A stretch of 29,554 nucleotides of DNA from an uncultured delta proteobacterium (GCA_963803975.1 CAWDOY010000038.1:1-29554); one strand, 5' to 3'. Numbered from the stretch's first letter, positions 3,298 to 29,554 are shown. Made by a program: numbers and translations. The notes: generated by a model not told the origin, from the sequence alone.

Positions 3298-3615
3298 CTA
3301 TTGCAGGTTGCACTGCTGCTTAATTTCAGCAATCTTCTTATCGATCATGCTGTTGTAATCGCCGGATGCAACTTTCATCTTGTCACCCTCTGTCCCGGTT
3401 ATAATGCCAATGACCGCGCCAGCCGGCACAATTGCTGTGATGCCGTTTGCTATCTGCTGCGCTACATGTGCTTTTTCAGACTGCAACACGCGTATATCCC
3501 CCTCTGCCGTCGCGCAGTTGATCGGCTTTGCTATGTCCTGCTTTTCCTGCTGGGTGATTGGCGCGCATGCTGTCGCGAGTACGATTGCTAAAACGGTCAG
3601 TAAAATCTTTTTCAT
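3298..3615 (-). CDS. Hypothetical lipoprotein
   Basis: GGAGG RBS before MKKILLTVLAIVLATAC (lipobox ATA-C). True start is likely 3615, not 3654. Confidence 0.85.
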   Translation of the reverse strand: MKKILLTVLAIVLATACAPITQQEKQDIAKPINCATAEGDIRVLQSEKAHVAQQIANGITAIVPAGAVIGIITGTEGDKMKVASGDYNSMIDKKIAEIKQQCNLQ

Positions 3616-3719
3616 GGTTTGTTCCTCCAGTATGGTTTGGTGCTTTATTTTCATCCCCGTGCCAGTCTATGTAATAAAAACTGCGGGCTGAGTACCACCT
3701 GTCAGGGCGGGGTTCTTTA

Positions 3720-15642: not shown

Positions 15643-17022
15643 ATGGCAGCAAAAAATAAAACAACAACAGAAAAGAAGCAGCTGGAAAACCTGGATAAGA
15701 AATATATCTGGCACCCCTTCACCCAGATGAAAGACTACTGCCGCACGAGCCCCCTCATTATTGAACGGGGCCAGGGATCATGGCTCTATGATATAGAGGG
15801 GAACCGCTATATCGATGGCGTCTCCTCGCTCTGGGTTACCATCCACGGCCATTGCAAGCGGGAAATCGACGCGGCCATCATCAAGCAGGTAAAAAAAATC
15901 TCGCACTCGACGCTGCTCGGCCTTACCAATGTGCCGGCGGTCAGGCTGGCACAGAAGCTGGCACAGATTTCCCCCCGGGGGCTCGCCAAGGTTTTTTACT
16001 CTGATAACGGCTCAACAGCGGTTGAAGTCGCTTTAAAGATCGCTTTTCAGTACTGGCAGCAGGCCTCCCGCGCAGCGCGGACAAAAAAATCTTTTGTCAC
16101 CCTGCGCAACGCCTACCATGGTGATACCATCGGAGCGGTGAGCGTCGGCGGGATTGATCTTTTTCACCGCATCTATAGACCGCTGCTCTTTAAAACCTTC
16201 CAGGTTGACTCACCGTACTGCTACCGCTGCCCGCTCAAGCGCGCGTATCCGGCGTGCGGCCTTGAATGTTTGAACGCCCTGGAAAAGACCCTGAAAAAAC
16301 ATCACGCTGAAATTGCCAGCCTCATCATGGAGCCGCTGGTGCAGGGCGCGGCCGGGATGATTGTCTTTCCCCGCGGCTATGTCAGCGCGGCCCGCAGCCT
16401 CTGCGCGCGCTACAACGTTCTTTTTATTGCTGACGAGGTTGCCGTGGGGTTTGGCAGGACCGGCAAAATGTTTGCCTGCGAGCATGAAAAGGTGCAGCCC
16501 GATCTCATGGCCCTGGCAAAGGGAATTACCGGCGGGACCCTGCCGCTTGCCGCCACGCTGGCCACAGACAGAATTTATAGCGCGTTCCTTGGCGAGTTTC
16601 AGGATTTAAAGACCTTCTACCATGGTCATACCTATACCGGAAACCCGGTTGCCTGCGCCGCGGCCCTGGCCAGCCTTGAAGTATTTGAACAGGAGCGCGT
16701 GCTTGCCGGCCTGCAGCCCAAAATCAAGTTTTTAAAAGAGCGCCTCAAGGCATTTTATCATCTGCGTCACGTCGGTGATGTCCGCCAGTGCGGATTCATG
16801 GTGGGCATAGAGCTGGTGGCAGACCGTGACACGAAAAAGCCCTTTCCGGTGAAGAAGAAAATCGGGCAGCAGGTGACAGCTGAAGCACGGCGCCGCGGCG
16901 TCATCATACGGCCCCTGGGAGATGTGATCGTTCTTATGCCGCCCCTCTCCATAGCAGTGAAGGAGCTTGAGACACTGATTGATGTTGTTTATGAAGCAAT
17001 AAAAGCGGTAACGGAACAATAA
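15643..17022 (+). CDS. bioA: Adenosylmethionine-8-amino-7-oxononanoate aminotransferase
   Basis: WHPFTQM, DGVSSLWV..HGH, SDNGSTAVEVALK, YHGDTIGA, EPLVQGAAGM, DEVAVGFGRTG, AKGITGG (PLP Lys), HGHTYTGNP and RPLGDV motifs. Confidence 0.96.
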   Translation: MAAKNKTTTEKKQLENLDKKYIWHPFTQMKDYCRTSPLIIERGQGSWLYDIEGNRYIDGVSSLWVTIHGHCKREIDAAIIKQVKKISHSTLLGLTNVPAVRLAQKLAQISPRGLAKVFYSDNGSTAVEVALKIAFQYWQQASRAARTKKSFVTLRNAYHGDTIGAVSVGGIDLFHRIYRPLLFKTFQVDSPYCYRCPLKRAYPACGLECLNALEKTLKKHHAEIASLIMEPLVQGAAGMIVFPRGYVSAARSLCARYNVLFIADEVAVGFGRTGKMFACEHEKVQPDLMALAKGITGGTLPLAATLATDRIYSAFLGEFQDLKTFYHGHTYTGNPVACAAALASLEVFEQERVLAGLQPKIKFLKERLKAFYHLRHVGDVRQCGFMVGIELVADRDTKKPFPVKKKIGQQVTAEARRRGVIIRPLGDVIVLMPPLSIAVKELETLIDVVYEAIKAVTEQ

Positions 17023-17532: not shown

Positions 17533-18765
17533 ATGAAAAAATCTCTGACCACACGCCTTATCATTTTCGCCGTCATCAGTGTTTTCTGTATTCCCGCAGG
17601 CCGCGTTTTTGCCGCCGGATTTGCGCTCTATGAAGGCAGCGCCCGCGGCAATGCCCTGGGCGGCGCGCTCATCGCGCGCGCTGATGATGCTTCCGCCGTA
17701 TACTACAATCCCGCCGGCATCACCCAGCTTAAAGGCACCCAGATGATCAACCGGCTGACGCTCATTACGCCATCCAATAAGATATATTTTTATGAAAACG
17801 GTAAGGATTCGGAGCTCAAGCGCAACTGGTTCTACCCGCCCTACGGCTACCTGACGCGCCAGCTCTCGGACCGGCTGTGGTTCGGGGTCGGCATGTTTGC
17901 CCGCTTTGGCCTCGGTACCGAGTATGAAGAAAACTGGCCGGGGCGCAACAACAGCTATAACGCGGTGGTGAAGGGCGTGGAAATAAACCCCAACCTGGCA
18001 TGGAAGGTTAACGACTGCTTTTCAATAGCCGGCGGGCTGAGCGTGATGCGCCTTGATGTAAAGCTTGAGCAGATGATCCCTATCTTCGATGTGGATTCGA
18101 GCCTGAAGGGCCATTCCTACGGCTGGGGATTTAATCTCGCCGCCCATTACAAACCCCGCGACTGGGTCTCTTTCGGCTTTTTATACCGGAGCAAGGTGAA
18201 ACATAACCTCGGGGGCCATGCGGATTTCATCAAGACTAGTTGCTGCGCAGGGCTGTTCCCTGACGGCCCGATCAGGCCGATGTGCATGCTGCCGGACGAA
18301 TATTTCTTGGCGTCGCCTTCAAGCCGATTGCAAGCTGAGCATTGAATTTGACGCGATCCTCACCCGGTGGAACACCTTTAATCATATGACGATCAACTTT
18401 GACGACGGCATTGCCGGCATGGATGAGGTAACAAAGCAGAAGGACTGGCATGATGTGTGGCGCTACCAGATCGGGGTTGAGTACGCCCTGACACCGATGG
18501 TTGACCTGCGCCTGGGCTATACCTATGACAATGAGCCCATTCCGGCGGGAGGGGTTGACTACCTGGTGTCGTCCTACGACCGGCAGCTCTTCAGCTGCGG
18601 CTTCGGCCTGCACTGGGGGCACTGGTCAACGGATTTCTCCTATACCTATCTGCGCAGCTAAAAACCGCAACTTCGAAGCGCGCACCGGTTGACGGGGTGC
18701 CCAAAAGCAGGCTCCACGACGGGGATGCCTACATCATCGGGGCCGGGATCGGGTATAAATTTTAG
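17533..18765 (+). CDS. fadL: OmpP1/FadL/TodX-family outer-membrane transporter (frameshifts near 18320, 18660, 18690)
   Basis: Signal peptide, then AGFALYEGSARGNALGGA..A.ADDASAVYYNPAGI. Later FGLGTEY, INPNLAWKVND, W.DVWRYQIGVEY and LRLGY.YD. Final frame ends ...GAGIGYKF* (terminal Phe of beta-barrels). Confidence 0.9.
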
Positions 18766-18836: not shown

Positions 18837-19916
18837 TCACGGATATTTGAATATCTGTCCCTGAAAATTCTTTACCAGCAGTGTTCCATTCTCCTCCCCC
18901 ACCACATATTCCGGAAGCAGCGGGATTTTGCCGCCGCCTCCCGGCAGGTCAATGACAAAGTGCGGAACGCACATCCCCGAAGTATGTTCGCGCAGTGCTT
19001 GCATAATGCTGAGTCCTGTGGCCAGCGCGGTGCGGAAATGGCCGGTGCCGCGCGCGAGATCCATCTGGTGGATGTAGTAGGGCTTCACCCGTATGCAGAG
19101 CAGCTTCTGCATCAGCTGCTGCATGACCGCGGCATTATCGTTTACCCCCTTCAGCAGCACGGTCTGACAGCCAAGGGGAATTCCCGCATCGCTCAGCAGG
19201 GCGCATGCCTGTGAGGCCTCGGGAGTAATCTCCGCCGGATGGTTAAAGTGGGTGTTAACGTACAGCGGGTGGAACCGCTGCAGGGTCTTTACCAGGCGCT
19301 TTGTTACGCGCTGCGGCAGCACGCAGGGCACCCGCGTGCCGATGCGGATGATTTCAACGTGCGGAATGGCCCGCACTGAAGCAAGAATATCTGCAAGCTG
19401 TTCATCCGCGAGCATCAGCGGGTCACCCCCGGAGATGAGCACGTCCCGCACTTCCCGGTGAAAGCGGATATAGGCAAGTCCATCGCTCAAGGTTTTATCG
19501 GTCACCGCAAACTGTTTGCCGATTTTTCGCTTGCGCGTGCAGAAGCGGCAGTGCACCGCGCACTGATTGGATACCAGGAACAGCACCCGGTCAGGATAGC
19601 GATGGGTTACATTCGGAACCGGGGAATATTCCTCTTCTGCGAGCGGGTCCTCCATTCCTGCAGTATCCATGAGCTCCGCTTCATCAGGCACCACCTGTTT
19701 CCACAAAGGATCTTCCGGCTCTTGTATCAGGCTGAGATAGTAGGGGTTGATCCGCAGGGGATAGCAGTCAATGACCTTTTGCATGGCTTCCCTGTCAATC
19801 GGGAAGCAGCGGGCAAGCTGCTCAGCTGTTGTTACCGCGTTTGCTGCCAGCTGCTGCCAGCTGGATCTCCCGGCAGGTTGCATAGAGAGTACGGTGGTGG
19901 CTGCTTTTCGAAGCAT
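18837..19916 (-). CDS. KamA-family radical SAM protein (lysine/glutamate 2,3-aminomutase-like)
   Basis: DPLAEE, HRYPDRVL, CAVHCRFCTRKR (CxxxCxxC), SGGDPL, RIGTR, NTHFNHP, QTVLLKGVND, PYY and PGGGGKIP (PLP Lys). Substrate not determinable from sequence here. Confidence 0.92.
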   Translation of the reverse strand: MLRKAATTVLSMQPAGRSSWQQLAANAVTTAEQLARCFPIDREAMQKVIDCYPLRINPYYLSLIQEPEDPLWKQVVPDEAELMDTAGMEDPLAEEEYSPVPNVTHRYPDRVLFLVSNQCAVHCRFCTRKRKIGKQFAVTDKTLSDGLAYIRFHREVRDVLISGGDPLMLADEQLADILASVRAIPHVEIIRIGTRVPCVLPQRVTKRLVKTLQRFHPLYVNTHFNHPAEITPEASQACALLSDAGIPLGCQTVLLKGVNDNAAVMQQLMQKLLCIRVKPYYIHQMDLARGTGHFRTALATGLSIMQALREHTSGMCVPHFVIDLPGGGGKIPLLPEYVVGEENGTLLVKNFQGQIFKYP

Positions 19917-20458: not shown

Positions 20459-21526
20459 ATGAAACGATATACAAAAAAGCGCTCAAAAAAGTCCTGGATG
20501 GCGCCGGGCACGCTCGTGCACATCGGGGAAAAGACCGTGGATATCACCGGGATCACGGTTATTGACTACAGTGAAACTGAGCTGCGGGAAGAAACGCTGC
20601 ACAGATCGAAGAATGCTTTTTATTAAAAGACAAGCCCACGGTTACCTGGATTAATCTTGAGGGCATTCATGATATACATCTGATTGAAAAGCTGGGGGCA
20701 TGTTATCAGATTCATCCGTTGACCCTGGAAGACATCCTGAACAGTGACCAGCGTCCCAAAATTGATGACATGGAGAATTATATCTTTATAGTTCTCAAAA
20801 TGCTGCACTACAATGACCAGGGCACTGATATTGTGTCCGAGCAGGTGAGCCTCATCCTCGGGCACAATTTTGTTTTTTCGTTTCAGGAGGGAATCAAGGG
20901 TGATGTGTTTGAGCCGCTGCGGCAGCGCATCAGGGGCAGCAAGGGAAAGATCCGCAAGATGGGGGCTGATTACCTGGCCTATGCTATGTTGACGGGATAG
21001 TGGATAATTATTTTACCGTTCTTGAAAAGCTGGGGGAGCAGATCGAGCTTCTTGAAGAAGAAGTGGTTACCGACCCCAAACCTGAAACCCTGCAAAAAAT
21101 ACACTACTTCAAAACGGGAGATGCTCTATATACGACAGGTGCATCTGGCCCCTGCGCGAAGTCGTTGCCGCGCTCGCGAAGAGGGAATCAGACTTGATAA
21201 AAGAGTCAACAGAGATTTATCTGCGGGATATTTATGATCATGTGGTGCAGATCATAGATACCATTGAAACATTCAGGGAAATGCTTTCCAGCATGCTTGA
21301 TATCTATCTTTCATCGCTCAGCAACCGGCTGAACCAGGTGATGAAAGTTTTGACCATTATCGCCACTATTTTTATCCCCCTCACCTTTCTCGCCGGCCTC
21401 TACGGGATGAATTTCAAATATATGCCTGAGCTGGAATGGCAATGGGGGTATCCCTTTGTTCTTACCATCATGATATCCGTCGTTTGCATCATGCTGTTTT
21501 TTTTCAGAAAACGGAAATGGCTGTGA
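20459..21526 (+). CDS. corA: Magnesium/cobalt transporter CorA (frameshifts near 20605, 20995, 21112)
   Basis: MKRYTKKRSKK..MAPGTLVHIGEK start, HPLTLEDI.N..QRPK, YLRDIYDH, MKVLTIIATIFIPLTFLAGLYGMNF.YMPEL.W..GY (GMN signature). Confidence 0.93.
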
Positions 21527-21658
21527 GCGAGCGTAGATGCACAGCTTATAGTTGAAATCAGGTAAAGCTGCCCTGCTTACGCCGCCGACGGTATAAATAA
21601 TAGCTACCGTTGCCTTGACAAAAACAAAAAAACAATGTAATTATTCTTTAAATTATAG

Positions 21659-21758
21659 ATTCTCCGAATCACTTTTTCTAAAGCCTTACATGCCATGAAG
21701 GGTGGTCAAAAGGGTTGTACTTGAAAAGGTACTGCCTCCCGTTTTTGGAAAGGAGAAT
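21659..21758 (+). ncRNA. Moco-family riboswitch aptamer, P3-less (Wco/tungsten-type) variant, copy 1
   Basis: P1 AUUCUCC/GGAGAAU. P2 AUCACUUUU/AAGGGUGGU enclosing a CUAA...AUG tetraloop-receptor-like motif. AGGGU, then P4 GUACUU-GAAA-AGGUAC, then GCCUCCCGUUUUUGGAAAGGAG, matching the moaA-type motif 3' end (GCCUCCCGUAUUUGGAAAGG). Confidence 0.88.
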
Positions 21759-21775
21759 TGGTCAAGTAACTATTG

Positions 21776-21809
21776 GCCAGTTCCGTTCTAATACGGGGCT
21801 GGCTTTTTT
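21776..21809 (+). terminator. Riboswitch expression-platform intrinsic terminator 1
   Basis: GCCAGTTCCGT/ACGGGGCTGGC stem + TTTTTT. Its 5' arm can alternatively pair with GAATTGGTCAA (antiterminator). Confidence 0.85.
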
Positions 21810-21837
21810 ATTATCACCCCATGGAGTAAAACTAATT

Positions 21838-23260
21838 ATGAAACACTTCCTAAGATACCCATCAATAAATCTGCTTCTGTTTGTATTAATTTTGCTATTT
21901 AAAATACCGGCGCACGCAGGCTGGGAACTGTTGACTTCCTGCTCCAACGAGCTATCAGTTGCGCGCAATCTGGGGCACAGCAAGCAATGATATATTTGCA
22001 GCTGGTGATTACGGAACGATTTTTCATTACAATGGAACTTCCTGGGGCACCATGTCGAGCGGCATCCCCCAAACTATCTACGGCGTATGGGGCAGTTCTG
22101 CAAGCAATGTGTTTGCGTGTGGCTGATCAAGGAAAAATTATACGCTATAATGGGTCTACTTGGAGTTCCATGACCAGCCCTACTGCTATAAGGCTTCGGG
22201 ATATGTGGGGCTCTTCCTCAAGCAATGTCTTTGCCGTTGGTGAGAGCGGGGTAATTTTACGCTATAATGGCAGCTCCTGGAGCACCATGATCAGCCCGAC
22301 GACTCTTACACTTCAGGGAGTGTGGGGCAGTGCCTCTAATAATGTATTTGCCGTTGGCGGGCCAAGCGCAAGCTCAGGCGGAGACCGTGGCGTAATATTG
22401 AAATATAATGGGAGTTCTTGGACAACCATATGGAATGATCCGTCAATTTTAAGATTTCACGATGCGTGGGGCAGTTCTGGAAATGATGTTTATGCAGTTG
22501 GAGAAGCAGGGGCAATCGTGCATACAACGAACGGTGGAACAAGCTGGTCTTTGATGTCAAATCCAGTTCTGGGAAGTACTGTGGTACTTCGAGATATATG
22601 GGGAAATGCTGCAAATAATATTTTTGCTGTCGGTGATGGGGATAATCTGACTGATTTTGGCACTACGATTATTCATTATGATGGAACGGCCTGGAGCATC
22701 ATGAAAAACCCGCGTGAGCAATATATCCTTAAACTTCCACGGCGTTTGGGGTAGCTCTGCAACCAGCGTTCTTGCTGTTGGTGAAGCAGGAACACTCCTG
22801 CAATTCGACAGTGATGGTGATGATGTGCCTGATTACCAGGATAATTGTCCAAACGATTGTAATACTGAGCAGCTTGATGCAGATAGCGATACCATCGGAG
22901 ATGTCTGTGACCAACACCCGGTTGCGGAGGATGCTCCGGGGTACAGTGCGAACAGGAGTGCATCCTTCCAGATACGGATAGTGATGGCATCCCCGACTTC
23001 AGAGATAATTGCCCCAGTGTTTCTAATCCAACTCAGACTGATACAGATCATGATAGCTTTGGTGACGTCTGTGACATTTGCCCTAACTGACCTCAACAGA
23101 TGATGCAGATAGTGATGGCGCTTGCGGGAGCGTTGACAATTGTCCAGGCAGATGTAACACCGGGCAGCTCGATGCGGATAGTGATGGTATAGGGGATGTG
23201 TGTGACCCGACACCTGGGTGTGGGGGCTGTGGTCTACCGCAGTGCGAACAACAATGCTGA
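21838..23260 (+). CDS. Secreted seven-repeat beta-propeller protein 1 with thrombospondin type-3-like Ca-binding repeats and Cys-rich tail (several frameshifts)
   Basis: Signal peptide [27 protein letters not shown]. Stitched repeats [48 protein letters not shown]. Then [15 protein letters not shown]...QLDADSD.IGDVCD repeats, ending [17 protein letters not shown]. Confidence 0.85.
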
Positions 23261-23315
23261 GATAATTTTATTGTTTTTAATATAAGATCATATTTTACGA
23301 ATTTATATTTTTCTC

Positions 23316-23344
23316 TTGACATATTTCAAATAATAACTTATTGT
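23316..23344 (+). promoter_or_regulatory. Sigma-70 promoter upstream of riboswitch 2
   Basis: TTGACA-N17-TATTGT, 15 bp before the aptamer. A TTGACA also sits at 21615-21620 before riboswitch 1. Confidence 0.6.
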
Positions 23345-23359
23345 TCTAAACGATTCTAT

Positions 23360-23459
23360 ATTCTCCGAATCACTTTTTCTAAAGCCTTAGATGCCATGAA
23401 GGGTGGTCAAAAGGGTTGTACTTGAAAAGGTACTGCCTCCCGTGTTTGGAAAGGAGAAT
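23360..23459 (+). ncRNA. Moco-family riboswitch aptamer, P3-less (Wco/tungsten-type) variant, copy 2
   Basis: 98/100 identical to copy 1. The two differences fall in the P2 and P5 loops. Confidence 0.88.
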
Positions 23460-23474
23460 TGGTTATTGAATAAT

Positions 23475-23510
23475 AGCCAGTTCCGTTTCTAATACGGGGC
23501 TGGCTTTTTT
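23475..23510 (+). terminator. Riboswitch expression-platform intrinsic terminator 2
   Basis: AGCCAGTTCCGT/ACGGGGCTGGCT stem + T run. Antiterminator GAATTGGTTATT/AATAGCCAGTTC. Confidence 0.85.
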
Positions 23511-23560
23511 ATTTATCAATTAACGTTTAACAATTTTTATTAATTTGAGAAGGAGGATTT

Positions 23561-24919
23561 ATGATTAGGAAGTTATTAAGTCGTATTATGTTTGCAGGTT
23601 TAATCATGGGGCTGGTATTTTTTACGTACGGCACGAATGCTTTTGCAGTTGTAGCCTGCGGCTGGAATCTGCAATACAACCCTGACCCGGATCCCAATGC
23701 CAATCAGCTCCGGGCAGTGTGGGGAGCATCTGGAAGCGATGTGTTTGCAGTTGGTGATATTGGGACTATACTACACACTACAGACAGTGGCAGCACTTGG
23801 ACCCCAATGACCAGCGGGACCGGTGTAAATATTTATGGCGTGTGGGGCACTTCGGGAACGAATGTCATAGCTGTGGGTGACAGTGGAAATATCCTGAGTT
23901 TTAATGGAACTTCTTGGAGTGCTATTGTCAGTGGCAGTAAGCGACTGAGAGATGTTTGGGGTACTGCAGCTGATAATGTAATAGTTGTTGGTGAAGATGG
24001 CATGATTCGAAGATATAATGGAAGTTTATGGAGTCAAATGACCAGCAATACGACCCTGACACTACAAGGCGTGTGGGGCAGTTCGGCATCTAATGTGTTT
24101 GCTGTTGGCGGGGCCAAGGAAAACCAGACCGGCAGTGCTATTGTTCAAAAATTTGATGGTTCAACCTGGAGTAATATTTTGACTTATACCTCGATTCCGC
24201 GATTCCACGATGCATGGGGAACTTCTGATACCAATGTCTATGTTGTGGGCGAGGCTGGAACCATTCTCCATACAACCGATGGCGGGACAAGCTGGAATGC
24301 AATGTCAGTTCCATCGGGAGTTAGCACAGTGACGCTTAGGGACATCTGGGGAACAGCAGAGAATGATATTTTTGCGGTTGGAGACGGACCTGCTGTACCC
24401 AACGGAAGCACCATTCTGCATTATGATGGCAGTGACTGGAGCATCATGAGTCATCCACGGGATAACAAAATAGTGAAGCTGCATGGTGTCTGGGGAAGCG
24501 CTCCTGACAATTTCTTTGCCGTTGGCGAGCCCTATATTGAACCAGATCTCATCACCAAGCATGGCACCATCGAACACTATTATGGTCCATGCACAACCTT
24601 AATCAGCCTCTCCTCATTTACCGCAACCCCTTTCAGCAAAGAAGTAGTTCTTGAATGGACAACCGCATCTGAGATTGATAATGCAGGGTTTAACCTGTAC
24701 CGCGCTGAATCTGAAAACGGAGAATACGTAAAGATTAATGATGAGTTGATTACAGCCCGCGGTTCATCAACTGAAGGCGCTTCGTATGAGTTTGCGGATG
24801 ATGGCCTGCAGAACAGAAACACCTATTATTACAAGCTTGAAGATGTAGACTTTGACGGCCAGAGCACCTTCCATGTCCCGAAAAAGGCAACGCCCCGGTG
24901 GATTTATGGGAATAGGTGA
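23561..24919 (+). CDS. Secreted seven-repeat beta-propeller protein 2 with C-terminal Ig/FN3-like domain
   Basis: AAGGAGG RBS, signal peptide and seven W-G-x4-V-F-A-V-G..G.I..Y.G..W repeats. C-terminal SFTA...V.LEWTTASEIDNAGFNLYR...YEF.D...YYYKLEDVDFDG domain. Confidence 0.9.
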   Translation: MIRKLLSRIMFAGLIMGLVFFTYGTNAFAVVACGWNLQYNPDPDPNANQLRAVWGASGSDVFAVGDIGTILHTTDSGSTWTPMTSGTGVNIYGVWGTSGTNVIAVGDSGNILSFNGTSWSAIVSGSKRLRDVWGTAADNVIVVGEDGMIRRYNGSLWSQMTSNTTLTLQGVWGSSASNVFAVGGAKENQTGSAIVQKFDGSTWSNILTYTSIPRFHDAWGTSDTNVYVVGEAGTILHTTDGGTSWNAMSVPSGVSTVTLRDIWGTAENDIFAVGDGPAVPNGSTILHYDGSDWSIMSHPRDNKIVKLHGVWGSAPDNFFAVGEPYIEPDLITKHGTIEHYYGPCTTLISLSSFTATPFSKEVVLEWTTASEIDNAGFNLYRAESENGEYVKINDELITARGSSTEGASYEFADDGLQNRNTYYYKLEDVDFDGQSTFHVPKKATPRWIYGNR

Positions 24920-24965
24920 AACGTGTAAAGTGAATACACACCGTGAAAAAAACAGGGAGTGAGAT

Positions 24966-25079
24966 ATGAAAAAAGAATATGAAGCACCAAAAGTAATAAC
25001 GTACTCTGAAGATGAGCTCATTGAAATGCTCGGTCCGGCCCAAACCTGCTCACCCAGCCCGTGCCCGACCTATCAATGA
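24966..25079 (+). CDS. 37-aa peptide with RiPP-leader-like YxxP motif and Cys/Pro tail (not in ORF track)
   Basis: MKKEYEAPKVITYSEDELIEMLGPAQTCSPSPCPTYQ*. AGGGAG RBS upstream and a terminator downstream. Confidence 0.7.
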   Translation: MKKEYEAPKVITYSEDELIEMLGPAQTCSPSPCPTYQ

Positions 25080-25114
25080 TAAAAGTCGGTAAAAACCATC
25101 GAACGTAAGGCAAT

Positions 25115-25150
25115 AAGGCGGGGCCGGAAATGGCCCTGCCTTTTCTTGTT
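25115..25150 (+). terminator. Intrinsic terminator after the small peptide
   Basis: AAGGCGGGGCC-GGAAAT-GGCCCTGCCTT followed by TTCTTGTTT. Confidence 0.65.
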
Positions 25151-25186
25151 TAACAACTGAACCCTTGAAACATATAAAAACGCATT

Positions 25187-26977
25187 ATGAAAAAAATATT
25201 TTATTTCGTCATTCTGTTTTTTTTGTCACTCAGCGCTGCACAGGCCGAGTGGTCGGTTCAATATAATCCTGACCCTGATCCCAATGCCAACCAGCTCCGG
25301 GCCGTTTGGGGCGCATCAGGCACTGAAGCATTTGCGGTGGGTGAATATGGCACCATATTGCATACAACAAATAATGGAACCGTCTGGAATCTTATGCCGG
25401 CTGGTATCATACAAACTATGTACGGTATCTGGGGCAGCTCAGCGACTGACATTTTTATTGTAGCCGATACAGGTATAATTCTGCGCTATGATGGCACTAC
25501 TTGGAGCACCATGACCAGTCCGGTAATAACACGGCTGCGTGATGTATGGGGCGTATCTGAGACGGATGTGTTTGCTGTGGGCGAAAACGGGGTGATACTG
25601 CATTATAATGGTACAGCATGGAGCAACATGACCAGCCCGACGACTCTAACGTTACAGGGTGTGTGGGGCACTGCAGGAAATAATCTATTTGCTGTAGGCG
25701 GGCCCAGTGCAAGCTCCGGAGGAGATCGCGGCACTATTTTAAAATATGACGGGGGAAAGTGGAGCATTATCTGGAACGATCCGTCAATTCTGAGATTTCA
25801 TGACATCTGGGGAAGTTCAGCTACCAATCTGTTTGCCGTGGGAGAGGCCGGAGCCATCGTGCATTCAACCAATGGCGGAACAAACTGGGAAGTTATGGAT
25901 AATCCCGCGCAAGGCAGTTCGGTCACACTACGAGACATTTGGGGAAACTCCGGGAGCGATATTTTTGCCGTCGGCGACGGTAATCCTGCAAGTGATTACG
26001 GCAGCACCATCCTGCATTATGACGGCAACGCCTGGAGCATTATGGATAATCCGCGCAGCGCAACATCCACAAAGCTGCATGGTGTCTGGGGCAGTGCAGC
26101 AGATAACGTATTTGCCGTCGGTGACAGATATATCGAAGAGGACGGGTTAACCACGCATGGAACGATTATGCATTATACCGGGACTGCTGCATCCACTTCC
26201 ACAACGTCCAGCACCTCCTCTTCAACGACCACCGCGCCGACTACATCGAGCAGCTCAACCTCCAGCACCTCCTCTTCAACCACCACCGCACCGGTCACAT
26301 CGAGCAGCTCAACGTCCAGCACCTCCTCTTCGACCACCACCGTACCGACTACCTCGAGCAGCTCAAGTTCCAGCTCCTCCTCTTCTACCACCAGCAGTAT
26401 CAGCGGAGGCAGTACCACCTCCCCATCTACCACGACAACATCAGCGGCAAGCACCACTACGACAGTGCCGGTAACAACCAGCAGCACAAGTACCGCTGCT
26501 GCAACCAGCACCTCTACCAGCTCTTCAATCACTACCAGCTCTGTCCCCATAACCAGCACCACTACCACCACGGTCTTCTGTGTAGTTGAGAAAATCTTTG
26601 ATGGTACGGACAAGCCTGAAGTTTCCATGGTCCGATCGTACCGGAACACGCGGCTCACTAAATCATTTACCGGCATCATGTTGATGTATCTCTACTATAC
26701 TCATTCTGAAGAAATGACACAGGTCTTAACCGCGCACCCGGCACTCTCTATGAAAGCTGCCGCACTTGCTAAGGAACTTATTCCTTCCCTGCAGTCCGGC
26801 CTGCAAAATAACAGTGCTATTGTTCTGACCGGGGACCAATATAACCGGGTGCTCGATATCCTCAGAGAGATGAGGGAAAAATCATCTCCGCGATTAGCCG
26901 GCGCCATAACTTTTGTTCTGAAAAAGCTTGCATCACCGGAACAATTAGAGAAAACAGGGGTGCTCGTGCGGCGCTGA
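25187..26977 (+). CDS. Secreted seven-repeat beta-propeller protein 3 with long Ser/Thr linker and CFI-box-CTERM-like C-terminal domain
   Basis: Signal peptide ending AAQA, seven WG repeats and a roughly 130-aa S/T linker. C-terminal C.VE..F....PEV..VR.YRN..L.KS.TG..L..LYY..S helical domain. Confidence 0.9.
   Translation: MKKIFYFVILFFLSLSAAQAEWSVQYNPDPDPNANQLRAVWGASGTEAFAVGEYGTILHTTNNGTVWNLMPAGIIQTMYGIWGSSATDIFIVADTGIILRYDGTTWSTMTSPVITRLRDVWGVSETDVFAVGENGVILHYNGTAWSNMTSPTTLTLQGVWGTAGNNLFAVGGPSASSGGDRGTILKYDGGKWSIIWNDPSILRFHDIWGSSATNLFAVGEAGAIVHSTNGGTNWEVMDNPAQGSSVTLRDIWGNSGSDIFAVGDGNPASDYGSTILHYDGNAWSIMDNPRSATSTKLHGVWGSAADNVFAVGDRYIEEDGLTTHGTIMHYTGTAASTSTTSSTSSSTTTAPTTSSSSTSSTSSSTTTAPVTSSSSTSSTSSSTTTVPTTSSSSSSSSSSSTTSSISGGSTTSPSTTTTSAASTTTTVPVTTSSTSTAAATSTSTSSSITTSSVPITSTTTTTVFCVVEKIFDGTDKPEVSMVRSYRNTRLTKSFTGIMLMYLYYTHSEEMTQVLTAHPALSMKAAALAKELIPSLQSGLQNNSAIVLTGDQYNRVLDILREMREKSSPRLAGAITFVLKKLASPEQLEKTGVLVRR
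26207..26392 (+). repeat. 54-bp tandem repeat (about 3.5 units) encoding the Ser/Thr linker
   Basis: Units start TCCAGC at 26207, 26261, 26315 and 26369 (SSTSSSTTT.P.TSSSST). Confidence 0.85.
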
Positions 26978-27009
26978 CCGCCTGATCCCTCATGCAGGAA
27001 AGATCTCAT

Positions 27010-28223
27010 ATGAAACAAAGAAAATACATACCCTCTTTGGTCTTGGCTCTTGCCATTATCCCGATGCTTTTGCTGCTGCCATGTCTATCCGCCCATGCCG
27101 GCTGGGAGGCACAGAGTACCGTACCGACCAAGAACCAGCTCCGCGCGGTATGGGCCAGCTCCGCAACTGACGTGTTTGCAGTGGGCGATTACGGCACGAT
27201 TGTCCACTATGACGGCACCAGCTGGGGCAGCACCACGGTGGGAGCCTTTAATATTTACGGGGTGTGGGGAACTTCAGAAACGGATGTTTATGCGGTTGCC
27301 GATAAAGGCATCATCCTGCACTATGACGGCAGCGCCTGGAAAAATATGACCAGCGGCACCGTGCAGCGCTTGAGGGATGTATGGGGTTTTTCCACGACCG
27401 ATATCTTCGCGGTCGGTGAGAACGGCACCACCCTGCATTATGACGGGACTACCTGGAGCCGCATGAGCAATGCCACCATCCTCACGCTTCAGGGGGTTTG
27501 GGGCATCTCCAGTGATGACCTCTATGCTGTCGGCGGCGCCAGCGCCAGCTCCGGACCGGGTAACGATATCATGGTCCATTATGACGGCAGCACCTGGACG
27601 CTGGTGCACACCGGCAGCCTGGCACGGCTGCATGACTTATGGGGAAACTCTGCAGCAAATCTTTTTACGGTGGGTGAATCCGGCGGAATCTTTAACTATA
27701 ATGGAACGAACTGGACGAGCGTTGATAATCCAGTGAATGGCAATGCTGCAATAACGCTGAGAGATATATGGGGTTCTTCAGGAAGTGATATCTTTGCTGT
27801 CGGCGACGGCGGAACAGTCTTGCACTATGACGGCGCGCAGTGGAAAAGCATGGACAGTAAAACCAGCGTCAAGCTCCATGGCGTGGCCGGCGTTTCAGCA
27901 AGCGAAGTTTTTGCCGTGGGCGAGTCCGGCACCATTATCCGCTATGACGGCAAAGATGATGGCGGCAACAATGGGAACTGCATCTTTACGGCGATCTTAG
28001 GGAAAGGCAACCCGCAGCTTGATACCCTGCGGCGGGTGCGTGATGATGCTCTGGTTAAGAGCGCGCTGGGGGGGGGCTGATAGCATTCTACTATACCTGC
28101 GGCAGGCTGCTGGTACCGCTTGTTGAACAGCAGCCGCTGGTTCGGCAGGGCGCAAAACAGTTTCTTGAATCACTGCTGCCGCTCATAGCAGCAATGGCAC
28201 CTGCTCACGAGATCAGGCCGTGA
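27010..28223 (+). CDS. Secreted seven-repeat beta-propeller protein 4 with CFI-box-CTERM-like domain (frameshift at G9 tract 28068-28076)
   Basis: Signal peptide ending SAHA and seven WG repeats. CIFTAILG.GNPQLDTLRRVRDDALVKSALG continues in another frame as LIAFYYTCGRLLVPLVEQQPLVRQGAKQFLESLLPLIAAMAPAHEIRP*. Confidence 0.88.
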
Positions 28224-28754
28224 GCTTTCAGCCGCCGCACCACCAGCGGGACCAGCGCCGAGCCGGCAGCGCCGAACAGAATGTTCATGGTGGACCCTAT
28301 CAGAGCTTTTTTCAGCATGATGTCGTAGTCCATCTCCACCAGCCAGTCGATTCCCATGGACGTAGCATAGCGAAAGGCTGCTGCAATCGCGCCGACGATT
28401 ACGCAGGCCGGAATGCTGAAGGCAAGTCGTGAATACAGAAGCGCTGCAGCGTCCACAATAATACCCGGCAGAACAAACTTTATTATAAGCAGCGGCCCCT
28501 CCTTGCCCATGCCGAGCATGGTGCACATGATGCCCGCGATGAGCCCCACCAGTGTTGCCGCTCCCAGCCTCTGCACGCAGCCCCTGCCGAGAATCAGAAA
28601 AAACATGGTAAAAAACATGCGCGTGCCCGGGAATGTTCAGTTTCAGCATCAGCGCTGCGCGGGTTATAATGATAAATGTCGCGCAGAAACCAAGCCAGAT
28701 GGCCTCGCGCAGGGTAAATCGCTTCCACACCATTGCTTTAGTGTTACCCGTCAT
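28205..28754 (-). CDS. Predicted ECF-transporter substrate-binding (S) component (frameshift near 28620)
   Basis: About 180-aa highly hydrophobic protein when joined (...KLNIPGH/MFFTMFFLILG...GAATLVGLIAG...KFVLPGIIVD...). ATGA-coupled to EcfT. Confidence 0.7.
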
Positions 28755-29524
28755 GGGGTCTTCTTTATCTCCATGTCATTGACAGCAGCAGTTTTGCCGC
28801 GGAAGTTTTGATAGTTCGCTGAATTCCAGTAGCTGCGTTTGGGATGCGAGCCGAAAGCGCGGGCCTCTGCTGAAAGGGCTGCCTCATCAGCGGTCTTCAA
28901 TGCCCTGATGATAAGCGGCAGCAGCAGACAGTTCAGCAGGTCCGGCCAGTTGCGCGGGTTTAAGAGCTCTCGGGGAGCCAGACGCGCGCCGCGCAGCCGC
29001 TGGGCCATGGCAATTTCCCGGACTTCCCGGGCAAAAAAAGGAATAAACCGGAGGCTCGTAAAAACCAGAAACGCCATCCGGTAGGGCAGGATTTTGCGCA
29101 TGCTGTACATCATCTGGGATATCCGGGTCGTTCGCAGCAGGATTATACCGGGAAGAAAGAAAAGTAAAATCCGCAGCGAGGTGCGCAGGCCCAGCCAGAT
29201 TCCCTCCGGTATGCCGTAGCGCAGCATATAGAGCACTAACACCACCGCCATCTGGATCAAAAAGAACCAGAGGTCCCGCACCAGCTCCGCGACACTCAGG
29301 CGCGCCAGGAAATAGTAGCCGGCATTAACGGCAATCAGCGCTGCCAGCAGCCAGGGATTGCTCGCGCCGATAGCAGCCGCGCACAGCGCTGTGCCGAGAA
29401 GCAGCTTCCAGCCCGCCCCCATCCGGTGAACCGGGGAATCTGTTGCCCGGTACTGAAACGCGTAGTCATTTGCCCGGGGCTGATTCTGAATGGCTGATGG
29501 TTTAATTACATTCAATGGCGCCAT
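28751..29524 (-). CDS. ecfT: ECF transporter transmembrane component (EcfT/CbiQ family), start uncertain
   Basis: Y...DSPVHRM....KL N-terminus, LRTT, LRFIP, AQRLRG and AEARAF (the two conserved Arg motifs of the coupling helices). Confidence 0.9.
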   Translation of the reverse strand: MAPLNVIKPSAIQNQPRANDYAFQYRATDSPVHRMGAGWKLLLGTALCAAAIGASNPWLLAALIAVNAGYYFLARLSVAELVRDLWFFLIQMAVVLVLYMLRYGIPEGIWLGLRTSLRILLFFLPGIILLRTTRISQMMYSMRKILPYRMAFLVFTSLRFIPFFAREVREIAMAQRLRGARLAPRELLNPRNWPDLLNCLLLPLIIRALKTADEAALSAEARAFGSHPKRSYWNSANYQNFRGKTAAVNDMEIKKTP

Positions 29525-29554
29525 GCTCCAATATCAGTATCCGGTCTGCCCAAT
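29502..29554 (-). CDS. C-terminal end of an ABC ATPase (probable EcfA), partial
   Basis: Minus-strand frame reads WADRILILEHGAIECN*, the typical 'ADR....G.I' ABC ATPase C-terminal strand, directly upstream of ecfT. Confidence 0.65.
   Translation of the reverse strand, partial: WADRILILEHGAIECN

Follow-up and report, generated by a model that had tools for sequence, protein, structure and literature searches.

We analysed a 29,554-nt stretch of DNA from an uncultured delta proteobacterium (GCA_963803975.1 CAWDOY010000038.1:1-29554; hereafter the window, with coordinates counted from its first letter), in which four co-oriented genes for beta-propeller proteins follow one another and a riboswitch aptamer of the molybdenum cofactor (Moco)/tungsten cofactor (Wco) family, with its own intrinsic terminator, stands directly before each of the first two (Table 1). 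The link between riboswitch and propeller is not a one-off and recurs widely, and the propellers that share it carry a common per-blade residue signature.

Table 1. Features of the riboswitch-propeller locus and its 3' neighbours in the window
Feature	Position	Strand	Description
Sigma-70-like promoter match before riboswitch 1	21615..21644	+	TTGACA, 18 nt, AATTAT with TG; 10/12 consensus positions
Moco/Wco riboswitch aptamer 1 (P3-less)	21650..21771	+	RF01055 75.9 bits, E 6.5e-17; own model R1 107.9 bits
Intrinsic terminator, riboswitch 1 expression platform	21775..21810 (hairpin 21775-21804)	+	12-bp stem and T-run
Propeller gene 1	21839..23260 (about)	+	Signal peptide, 7-blade R-Y-R-Q-type propeller, thrombospondin type-3 repeats; frame-broken
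Sigma-70-like promoter match before riboswitch 2	23316..23344	+	Consensus scan
Moco/Wco riboswitch aptamer 2 (P3-less)	23351..23472	+	RF01055 72.9 bits, E 5.1e-16; own model R1 107 bits
Intrinsic terminator, riboswitch 2 expression platform	23475..23511 (hairpin 23475-23505)	+	12-bp stem and T-run
Propeller gene 2, 452 aa	23561..24919	+	Signal peptide (possible lipobox VVAC), 7 blades, C-terminal ~100-aa 'EIDNAGFN' module
Small open reading frame (ORF), 37 aa	24966..25079	+	Between genes 2 and 3; same peptide in metagenome locus L120 (about 3565-3680)
Possible decayed aptamer ahead of gene 3	25075..25175	+	R1 19.9 bits; below any Rfam threshold
Propeller gene 3, 596 aa	25187..26977	+	Signal peptide, propeller, Ser/Thr-rich linker, CFI-box-CTERM-like helical module
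Propeller gene 4, 362 aa here	26992..28080	+	Signal peptide, propeller, CFI-box-CTERM-like module cut short
S-component-like membrane protein of an energy-coupling factor (ECF) importer	28205..28754	-	Frameshift near 28620; 96.5% identical to 182-aa L120 protein
ECF T component (CbiQ family)	28751..29524	-	PF02361, E 9e-20; contig ends just beyond

The original prediction had named two Moco-family aptamers with terminators ahead of propeller genes 1 and 2, and both pass the Rfam covariance model RF01055 far above its gathering score of 36 bits. Both aptamers are full length (model positions 1-135 aligned), and no Rfam match besides these two was found in the window. The two are near copies of each other, and the P3 hairpin columns are deleted in both alignments, which places them in the P3-less subclass. 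According to Regulski et al. 2008 (PMC2408646), variants that lack P3 go together with tungsten-cofactor metabolism, and the E. coli representative of this RNA represses expression. The sigma-70-like promoter matches come from a consensus scan alone and were not taken as a sign of function.

The terminator stems are GC-rich and lie a few bases 3' of each aptamer, directly after P1. On unconstrained folding, the conserved 3' core of the aptamer, CCUCCCGU..GGAAAGGAGAAUUGG, pairs with both halves of the terminator, and the resulting antiterminator fold and the aptamer-plus-terminator fold are mutually exclusive and similar in energy: -52.5 kcal/mol (the minimum free energy) vs -50.2 kcal/mol in the leader of riboswitch 1, and -57.5 vs -54.6 kcal/mol in that of riboswitch 2. 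The predicted architecture is that commonly found in OFF switches acting on transcription. Once the cofactor is bound, the aptamer would hold the 3' core, the terminator would form and the propeller genes would be off; with cofactor scarce, the 3' core would pair with both terminator halves and read-through would turn the genes on. Because aptamer and terminator are built in this way, the genes should be on when the cofactor is scarce, in keeping with the prediction that the propellers are made under cofactor scarcity. Similarly, 17 of 20 propeller-preceding riboswitches elsewhere have a terminator by our own threshold, and the other three have weaker hairpins with T-runs.

The leader of gene 3 is of a different kind. 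Fragments of P4 and P1 alone align there to our model R1, the P4 hairpin having a GAAA loop, and the sequence is probably a decayed third copy of the riboswitch; weak R1-type matches like it are also found 3' of the first propeller in L134 and L136. The P4-like hairpin (25115-25142) and the T-run after it read as a terminator between gene 2 and gene 3, an element which the prediction of a riboswitch-headed set of four had overlooked. That set holds for genes 1 and 2; whether riboswitch 2 also governs genes 3 and 4 is uncertain because this hairpin intervenes.

Genes 2, 3 and 4 are open frames, and their products are paralogues at 44-57% identity. Judged by eye, each of the four N-termini has a basic n-region followed by a hydrophobic core and a site of the AxA type. 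Gene 1 is frame-broken in this assembly. It is spread over at least three frames (ORF pieces 21715-21990, 21987-22754 and 22714-23103), and its C-terminal end gives a Pfam match to TSP_3. L120, a collinear metagenome locus with 88% nucleotide identity to the window over 21401-29553, keeps both riboswitches and four intact propellers, including a gene 1 product of 475 aa and a gene 4 product of 409 aa. The relatives of gene 4 are also 409 aa long, and the window copy is shortened by a missing base near 28078. The window differs from L120 by isolated single-base indels at about 21936, 22117, 22712, 22912, 28078 and 28620. No sequencing run covers the stretch (best share 0.12), and public contigs, two RNA libraries included, cover fragments only; they were used to check two frameshifts of gene 1, and near-identical contigs lack both. 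Because gene 1 is intact in L120 and these contigs are free of the two frameshifts, the breaks are probably assembly errors rather than marks of a pseudogene, real mutations being the lesser possibility. Other genes in the window are split as well: FadL lies in two ORFs (17533-18661), the C-terminal piece of CorA stands apart (21194-21526) and the frame at 28205-28754 is broken. Single-base indels across the window thus suggest an error-prone assembly rather than pseudogenes. Further upstream, a KamA-like radical S-adenosylmethionine aminomutase gene (18837-19916, minus strand) and a class-III aminotransferase gene (15643-17022, plus strand) are apparently unrelated to the locus.

Recurrence of the riboswitch-propeller link

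RF01055 was found in 35 of the 41 genomes searched, which comprise this genome (G000) and 40 relatives (G001 onward). This genome has ten RF01055 RNAs, all P3-less and 117-123 nt long. Their targets are moaA, a tungsten-type aldehyde ferredoxin oxidoreductase (AOR), mop-moeA-modABC, an enzyme of the xanthine dehydrogenase (XDH) family with tandem riboswitches, a porin-dihaem-tupABC operon, a secreted beta-helix protein with tandem riboswitches, and the two propeller genes. For the relatives, 112 above-threshold matches were taken (six below threshold were dropped), tandems were merged to give 97 loci, and 9 kb downstream of each locus was covered. Propellers stand in the co-directional downstream run at three of these 97 loci, each with a gene order of its own. 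The order is riboswitch, terminator, small peptide and three propellers in G008:C31; riboswitch, TupA-like binding protein and propeller in G006:C77; and riboswitch, tupA, riboswitch, porin, GEGP dihaem protein, further genes, TonB-dependent transporter and propeller in G005:C27. Three GEGP dihaem proteins had also come up as propeller candidates and were rejected, as they match the C-terminal part of gene 3 only. The regulon of the relatives is otherwise the expected one, with MoaA, XDH-family subunits, ModA/TupA ABC systems, MobB and AOR, and includes a recurrent operon at 14 loci for Porin_O_P, the GEGP dihaem protein and a 130-aa protein. Searched by term, the supplement of the 2008 study (PMC2408646) places Porin_O_P after the RNA in two Geobacter genomes and has no TonB-related entries, and the gene lists there give 'unknown' genes for environmental reads only.

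A metagenome scan queried with the aligned propellers of the window and of G008 returned 49 loci. At 16 of them, which form 12 groups at 90% identity, a propeller ORF starts at most 285 nt 3' of a same-strand Moco riboswitch, and Rfam confirms 20 aptamers in these 16 loci. In comparison, a riboswitch upstream of the propeller was found at none of the 13 control loci around unlinked propellers. Most of the remaining metagenome loci are too short to show the upstream region or hold more distant propellers. A contig scan with the single sequence of gene 2 found two distant loci only (L031 and L032). Homologues that have a source name come from metagenome-assembled genomes of Deltaproteobacteria and Desulfobacterales.

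A single clade of riboswitch-linked propellers was rejected, because the tree needs three changes of the linked state, at least two of which are forced by well-supported branches. The tree also shows that duplication within single lineages gave rise to the G008 triplet and to window genes 2 and 3. One may ask whether riboswitch-plus-propeller units merely duplicate within lineages and have no functional tie to molybdenum or tungsten (Mo/W). The near identity of riboswitches 1 and 2, the possible decayed third copy before gene 3 and the clustering of paralogues within lineages would fit such a process. We give it hardly any credence, and it was already disfavoured, since the link recurs in 12 metagenome groups after dereplication and in three relatives whose gene orders differ, and since the linked label itself has to change at least twice on the tree.

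Two observations concern the riboswitch regulon at large. Contig C57 of this genome (29416-51200) is a Mo/W island in which several genes are frame-broken. One riboswitch there heads Porin_O_P, a GEGP dihaem protein with a CFI-box, a 134-aa protein and tupABC. A second group of genes, led by tandem riboswitches, encodes the secreted beta-helix protein, which bears an EIDNAGFN module, the small peptide, and several CBM96/DNRLRE-like proteins whose linkers are rich in Ser/Thr. After these come a TiaS-like protein of 241 aa and a homologue of the molybdenum storage protein (MoSto). Moreover, a Moco riboswitch precedes the genes for the small and large subunits of a [NiFe] hydrogenase, an unexpected target for this RNA, in L056 (G008:C129), L079 (G014:C22) and L096 (G020:C110).

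Predicted fold, wider family and blade signature

An AlphaFold model of the gene 2 product, built from 28 aligned sequences, has a mean predicted local distance difference test (pLDDT) score of 82, with the blades above 90, and shows seven blades of four strands each; the C-terminal domain is poorly predicted. Its best match among solved structures is Ycf48 (template modelling score 0.74-0.76, normalised to the target, at 17-18% identity), and BtuG is absent from its top 50 Foldseek matches. A profile search of PDB sequences found no solved relative and only a chance-level Kelch match, and Pfam gives weak matches to PSII_BNR, Sortilin and Rax2. For PSII_BNR (cut-off 27), the scores are 27.0 for gene 2, 23.8 for gene 3 and 18.5 for gene 1, with no match for gene 4; the Ycf48 model NF010237 scores 34.9 against a cut-off of 326. 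The propellers resemble Ycf48/HCF136 (PDB 5OJR, 2XBG) in having seven blades, in being matched best to it in structure and in their weak PSII_BNR matches. They differ from it in their low identity, non-photosynthetic setting, extra C-terminal modules and a per-blade R-Y-R-Q-x-R signature.

The signature residue lies two positions before the V-W-G of the first strand in every blade. In the linked propellers, the successive blades carry R, Y/F, R, Q, H/K/Q/Y, R and H/F, which in gene 2 reads RYRQHRH. The pattern R-Y/F-R-Q-x-R is present in all 25 propellers linked to a riboswitch or a transporter, compared with 2 of 22 unlinked propellers and 8 of 115 from the family background. Within this genome it is confined to the genes of the locus (in full in three of them, and in the part of the broken gene 1 that aligns) and occurs in none of the eight other paralogues; same-genus propellers without the riboswitch are also without the signature. 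Judged by these residues, the riboswitch-linked propellers are a distinct subfamily. The contrast is suggestive rather than statistical proof, because the groups share ancestry. In the usual propeller topology the first strand of a blade is the innermost, and from the pseudo-symmetry of the predicted fold the seven residues should ring the axis at one mouth of the pore. Made up of three Arg plus Tyr, Gln and His/Lys, such a ring would be well suited to an anionic ligand.

The wider propeller family has more than 3,233 matches among the candidates scored, is spread over many phyla and is found fused to immunoglobulin (Ig), TSP3 and CARDB modules, and most of its members are without a Mo/W link, which the original prediction had missed. 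These data bear on a rival account, namely that the propellers are co-regulated envelope proteins that bind neither metal, acting either as Ycf48-like assembly or stabilising factors for the transporter described below or for periplasmic W/Mo enzymes, or as adhesins on Mo/W minerals. The structural match to an assembly factor, the size and spread of a family with adhesin-like fusions, and the other secreted repeat proteins under the same riboswitch here (beta-helix and CBM96/DNRLRE-like) all speak for it. A polar or basic residue, strictly conserved in each blade and peculiar to the linked subfamily, is easier to reconcile with a small anionic ligand than with a generic scaffold, and the recurrent placing beside a TupA-like binding protein and a transporter is likewise at odds with this account, which we hold to be unlikely, if the most serious of the rivals.

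The C-terminal modules were tried as markers of a Mo/W regulon and rejected, because they occur in 21 ORFs and at 32 places genome-wide. The 'EIDNAGFN' module (~100 aa) is the one in 21 ORFs of the genome, gene 2 included. The CFI-box-CTERM model NF041770 (cut-off 40) gives 31.5 bits in window gene 3 (26597-26761) and 27.8-32.8 bits in L120 genes 3 and 4, and such CFI-box-like modules lie at 32 places in the genome, 13 others of which are above the cut-off. From this distribution, both modules appear to be generic sorting or anchoring tags of the organism that are not regulon-specific.

The small peptide encoded between genes 2 and 3 (36-40 aa) has seven copies in the genome: in the window, on contigs C3 and C15, three times on C20 and at C57:38773-38892. 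Its N-terminal half is conserved, and its C-terminal part is invariant, with a GPAQTC motif and two Cys. The G008 copy (L011:2149-2259) sits between the riboswitch and propeller 1, and the peptide follows three of the 21 ORFs that end in the 'EIDNAGFN' module. In sequence it looks like the precursor of a modified peptide; no maturase was seen near the three C20 copies.

A TonB-dependent transporter and Mo/W genes beside the propellers

The ECF S and T genes at the end of the window are on the minus strand and convergent on gene 4. The S-component-like protein has a weak match to PF09819 and belongs to an Atlas cluster named 'putative ECF transporter S component' (score 0.95). Past the S and T genes, the L120 operon goes on to encode a fused EcfAA' ATPase, a TonB-dependent transporter of 714 aa and TonB. 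The contig of the window stops before that point, and EcfAA' is seen in L120, L133 and L138 only. Because the collinear L120 has the transporter and the contig here ends before it, we infer its presence in this organism. The neighbouring operon, which is part of the picture, was overlooked when the locus was first described.

Members of one transporter orthologue group (45-65% identity) lie beside propellers in L120, L133, L135/L138, G005, G008:C2, G009:C13 and G014:C21, and the group is found in 8 of the 41 genomes. TonB/ExbBD accompanies the transporter. In L133 the order is TonB-dependent transporter, EcfAA', EcfT, further genes, EcfS, riboswitch and propeller. The tightly packed L135/L138 operon begins with two riboswitches, two propellers, a 164-aa protein, TonB and the transporter, and goes on with a 232-aa protein, EcfAA', EcfT, further genes and EcfS; beyond it lie one more riboswitch and one more propeller, the third of each. 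In G008:C2 and G009:C13 a 150-aa protein, the transporter, a TupA-like binding protein and a propeller follow one another without a riboswitch. A riboswitch precedes the transporter in G006:C96, and in G014:C21 the transporter lies with a propeller, a FecCD/Peripla_BP_2 importer, TonB, a major facilitator superfamily (MFS) protein, a MoSto homologue and AOR. The G029 cluster has an ECF module. The TupA-like protein carries PBP_like_2 and SBP_bac_11 domains and scores 56.1 bits against NF041772 (cut-off 400), and by its sequence it is a relative of TupA and not TupA itself.

The MoSto homologue, of the amino-acid-kinase family, matches the Azotobacter beta subunit with an E value of 4e-64 (UMP kinases no better than 5e-09) and adjoins loci in G008, G006, G014, G018, G029 and contig C57 of G000. 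As a recurrent neighbour, this relative of MosA/MosB, the molybdenum storage protein of Azotobacter (PDB 2OGX, 4F6T), marks a Mo/W neighbourhood. MosA/MosB is a cytoplasmic store, and the homologue lies outside the window and is present beside the loci as one subunit type alone. These gene contexts, with a TupA-like protein, porin, TonB-dependent transporter, ECF module, MoSto homologue and AOR, agree with the expectation that homologues of the propellers would be met in Mo/W uptake settings. A complex prediction for the G008:C2 transporter and its adjacent propeller scored 0.00 against a mark of 0.32, which counts neither for nor against binding.

Two further proteins recur in these clusters. 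A secreted protein of ~150 aa without a family match is almost always directly upstream of the transporter or a TonB gene (L015:5629-6081, L129:1348-1818, L135:3926-4420, L169:7714-8295, L170:10860-11309, L171:12105-12563 and L175:9231-9698). A soluble protein of ~240 aa, with a weak TiaS or methanogenesis-marker-11-like N-terminal domain, recurs beside the MoSto homologue and ECF genes (L135:7355-8053, L139:1907-2629, L012:2967-3716, L174:6660-7385 and G000 C57:49449-50174).

The nearest solved relative of the transporter is BtuB (2e-29), and one source names many of its homologues 'vitamin B12 transporter' or 'outer membrane cobalamin receptor'. Together with the existence of ECF-type B12 importers, this could be read to mean that the transporter and ECF module import corrinoids (B12), that the propellers are BtuG-like B12 binders and that the Moco riboswitch is incidental. 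We consider this very improbable. The transporter scores 187 bits against the BtuB model TIGR01779, far below the cut-off of 599.7. No cobalamin riboswitch was found at threshold in the window or in any scanned locus, where RF01055 and tRNAs were the only matches. Moreover, the transporter operons of L135, G006:C96 and G005:C27 stand under Moco riboswitches, and the neighbours are MoSto, AOR and TupA-like genes.

The nature of the cargo is a separate matter. TonB-dependent transporters and importers of the ECF and FecCD/Peripla_BP_2 types usually carry cofactors or chelates, not oxyanions. The ECF and FecCD-type partners thus argue for a chelate or pterin cofactor as cargo, whereas the TupA-like partners argue for an oxyanion; as the inner-membrane partner varies, the substrate may belong to either class. 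The cargo might accordingly be W/Mo held in an organic complex (a metallophore), or else the molybdopterin/tungstopterin cofactor or one of its precursors, the riboswitch sensing the imported molecule itself; this we regard as rather doubtful. In a closely related form, to which we would assign an equally small likelihood, the propellers, the BtuB-like transporter and the ECF importer would together salvage cofactor or chelate, the propellers binding it outside the cell as BtuG binds B12, with the R-Y-R-Q-x-R ring as the binding site, in a Mo/W counterpart of B12 piracy. ECF modules in L120, L133, L135/L138 and G029, the FecCD-type importer in G014:C21 and the relationship of the transporter to BtuB are in line with an organic cargo, and the Arg/Tyr/His ring would suit the phosphate and dithiolene-metal end of the cofactor. 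Against it, an oxyanion-type, TupA-like binding protein adjoins the propeller, between it and the transporter, in G008:C2, G009:C13 and G006:C77, and the genome makes its own cofactor, with moaA, moeA and mod/tup genes under the same type of riboswitch. Furthermore, no metallophore synthesis genes were seen beside the loci, and the Mo/W pterin cofactor is very labile outside proteins.

A candidate W/Mo capture system

Taken with the gene neighbourhoods, the locus is explained best, at somewhat better than even confidence, by scarcity-induced extracytoplasmic capture propellers of a TonB-dependent W/Mo acquisition system, analogous to BtuG and not homologous to it. When read-through occurs, the products would be Sec-exported seven-bladed propellers with generic C-terminal sorting or anchoring modules. 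Their pore-ring residues, Arg-Tyr-Arg-Gln-(His/Lys)-Arg-(His/Phe), would bind anionic W/Mo species, for which tungstate, molybdate, a thio-form, a chelate and the pterin cofactor are candidates. The propellers would act outside the cytoplasm together with the dedicated BtuB-like transporter, and an inner-membrane importer would complete uptake (ECF here, FecCD-type or TupA-like elsewhere).

The parallel with BtuG drawn in the original prediction is apt in architecture and does not extend to homology. As in the B12-riboswitch-controlled BtuB-BtuG uptake loci of Bacteroides, so far as described in the available text of PMC6143338 and PMC10404256, a cofactor riboswitch gates a TonB-dependent transporter and seven-bladed propellers, often as several paralogues, with the logic of scavenging a scarce nutrient. 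The BtuG-type layout, with transporter and propeller under a riboswitch, is present in relatives of the locus (the L135 operon, G005:C27, and G006:C96 together with C77); the window's own transporter lies off the contig and is seen in the collinear L120 only. Unlike BtuG, to which a sequence relation is undetectable in Pfam, PDB profile and top 50 Foldseek searches, and unlike its lipoprotein anchor, most propellers here have signal-peptidase-I leaders and CFI-box or other C-terminal modules. The riboswitch class (Moco/Wco) and the inner-membrane partners also set these loci apart from BtuB-BtuG. With the classical Moco regulon the locus shares the RNA family, its P3-less subclass and a terminator-type OFF platform, and the secreted propellers, TonB-dependent transporter and ECF modules go beyond the gene lists in the available text on that regulon (PMC2408646).

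A wider parallel is offered by hemophore and other TonB-dependent capture systems such as HasA-HasR, in which a protein released from the cell or displayed on its surface binds a scarce nutrient and hands it to a dedicated TonB-dependent transporter. The concept of capture and hand-off would be common to both, and the folds are different.

Several points weigh against this interpretation. Where the propellers are located, what they bind, the hand-off to the transporter and the shared control of genes 3 and 4 are points that we infer, and the terminator-like hairpin splits gene 2 from genes 3 and 4. Control by the riboswitch is in itself no proof of a role in uptake, as the same type also heads cofactor-using enzymes (AOR and the XDH-family enzyme). 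The link is rare among relatives (3 of 97 riboswitch loci), and the fetched parts of the same-genus genome G001 (91% complete) contain no riboswitch-linked or signature-bearing propeller. Similarly, the transporter was not found in this assembly or in three other genomes of its family. The transporter clusters of G008:C2, G009:C13 and G029 are without a Moco riboswitch, a DtxR-type regulator adjoins that of G009, and the inner-membrane partner differs among clusters (ECF, FecCD-type ABC or TupA-like binding protein). As to the proteins themselves, Ycf48, the solved structure that they resemble most, serves in assembly and does not carry a ligand. The C-terminal modules are, from their distribution, not specific to the regulon. 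Three of the four signal peptides look like the signal-peptidase-I type without a lipobox, gene 2 alone having a possible one. The groups compared for the signature are phylogenetically related, so that its invariance reflects shared descent in part, and the geometry of the ring is taken from repeat symmetry.

To our knowledge, how tungsten and molybdenum cross the outer membrane in diderm anaerobes is essentially unknown. The described Mod, Tup and Wtp systems begin in the periplasm, and both metals are scarce or locked up in sulfidic sediments. The original prediction knew of no described Mo/W equivalent of BtuG, and our search agrees: in the full-text literature, with subscription-only papers outside its scope, no Moco riboswitch was found together with propellers, TonB-dependent transporters, ECF, MoSto or CFI-box proteins. 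Nothing similar is described in the available portions of genome papers that mention Mo regulation.

That signature propellers sit beside a TonB-dependent importer in many sediment bacteria points to an undescribed route of W/Mo scavenging, whose set of parts comprises the riboswitch, the signature-bearing propeller, one orthologue group of transporters and importers of the ECF, FecCD-type or TupA-like kind. If this is true, TonB-dependent scavenging assisted by accessory proteins would extend from iron and B12 to W/Mo, and the Moco/Wco riboswitch regulon would be enlarged past the cytoplasm and periplasm. The signature would also provide a simple sequence mark for spotting such systems in metagenomes. 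Should the cargo prove to be the cofactor or a chelate, bacteria would for the first time be seen to have a salvage route of this sort.

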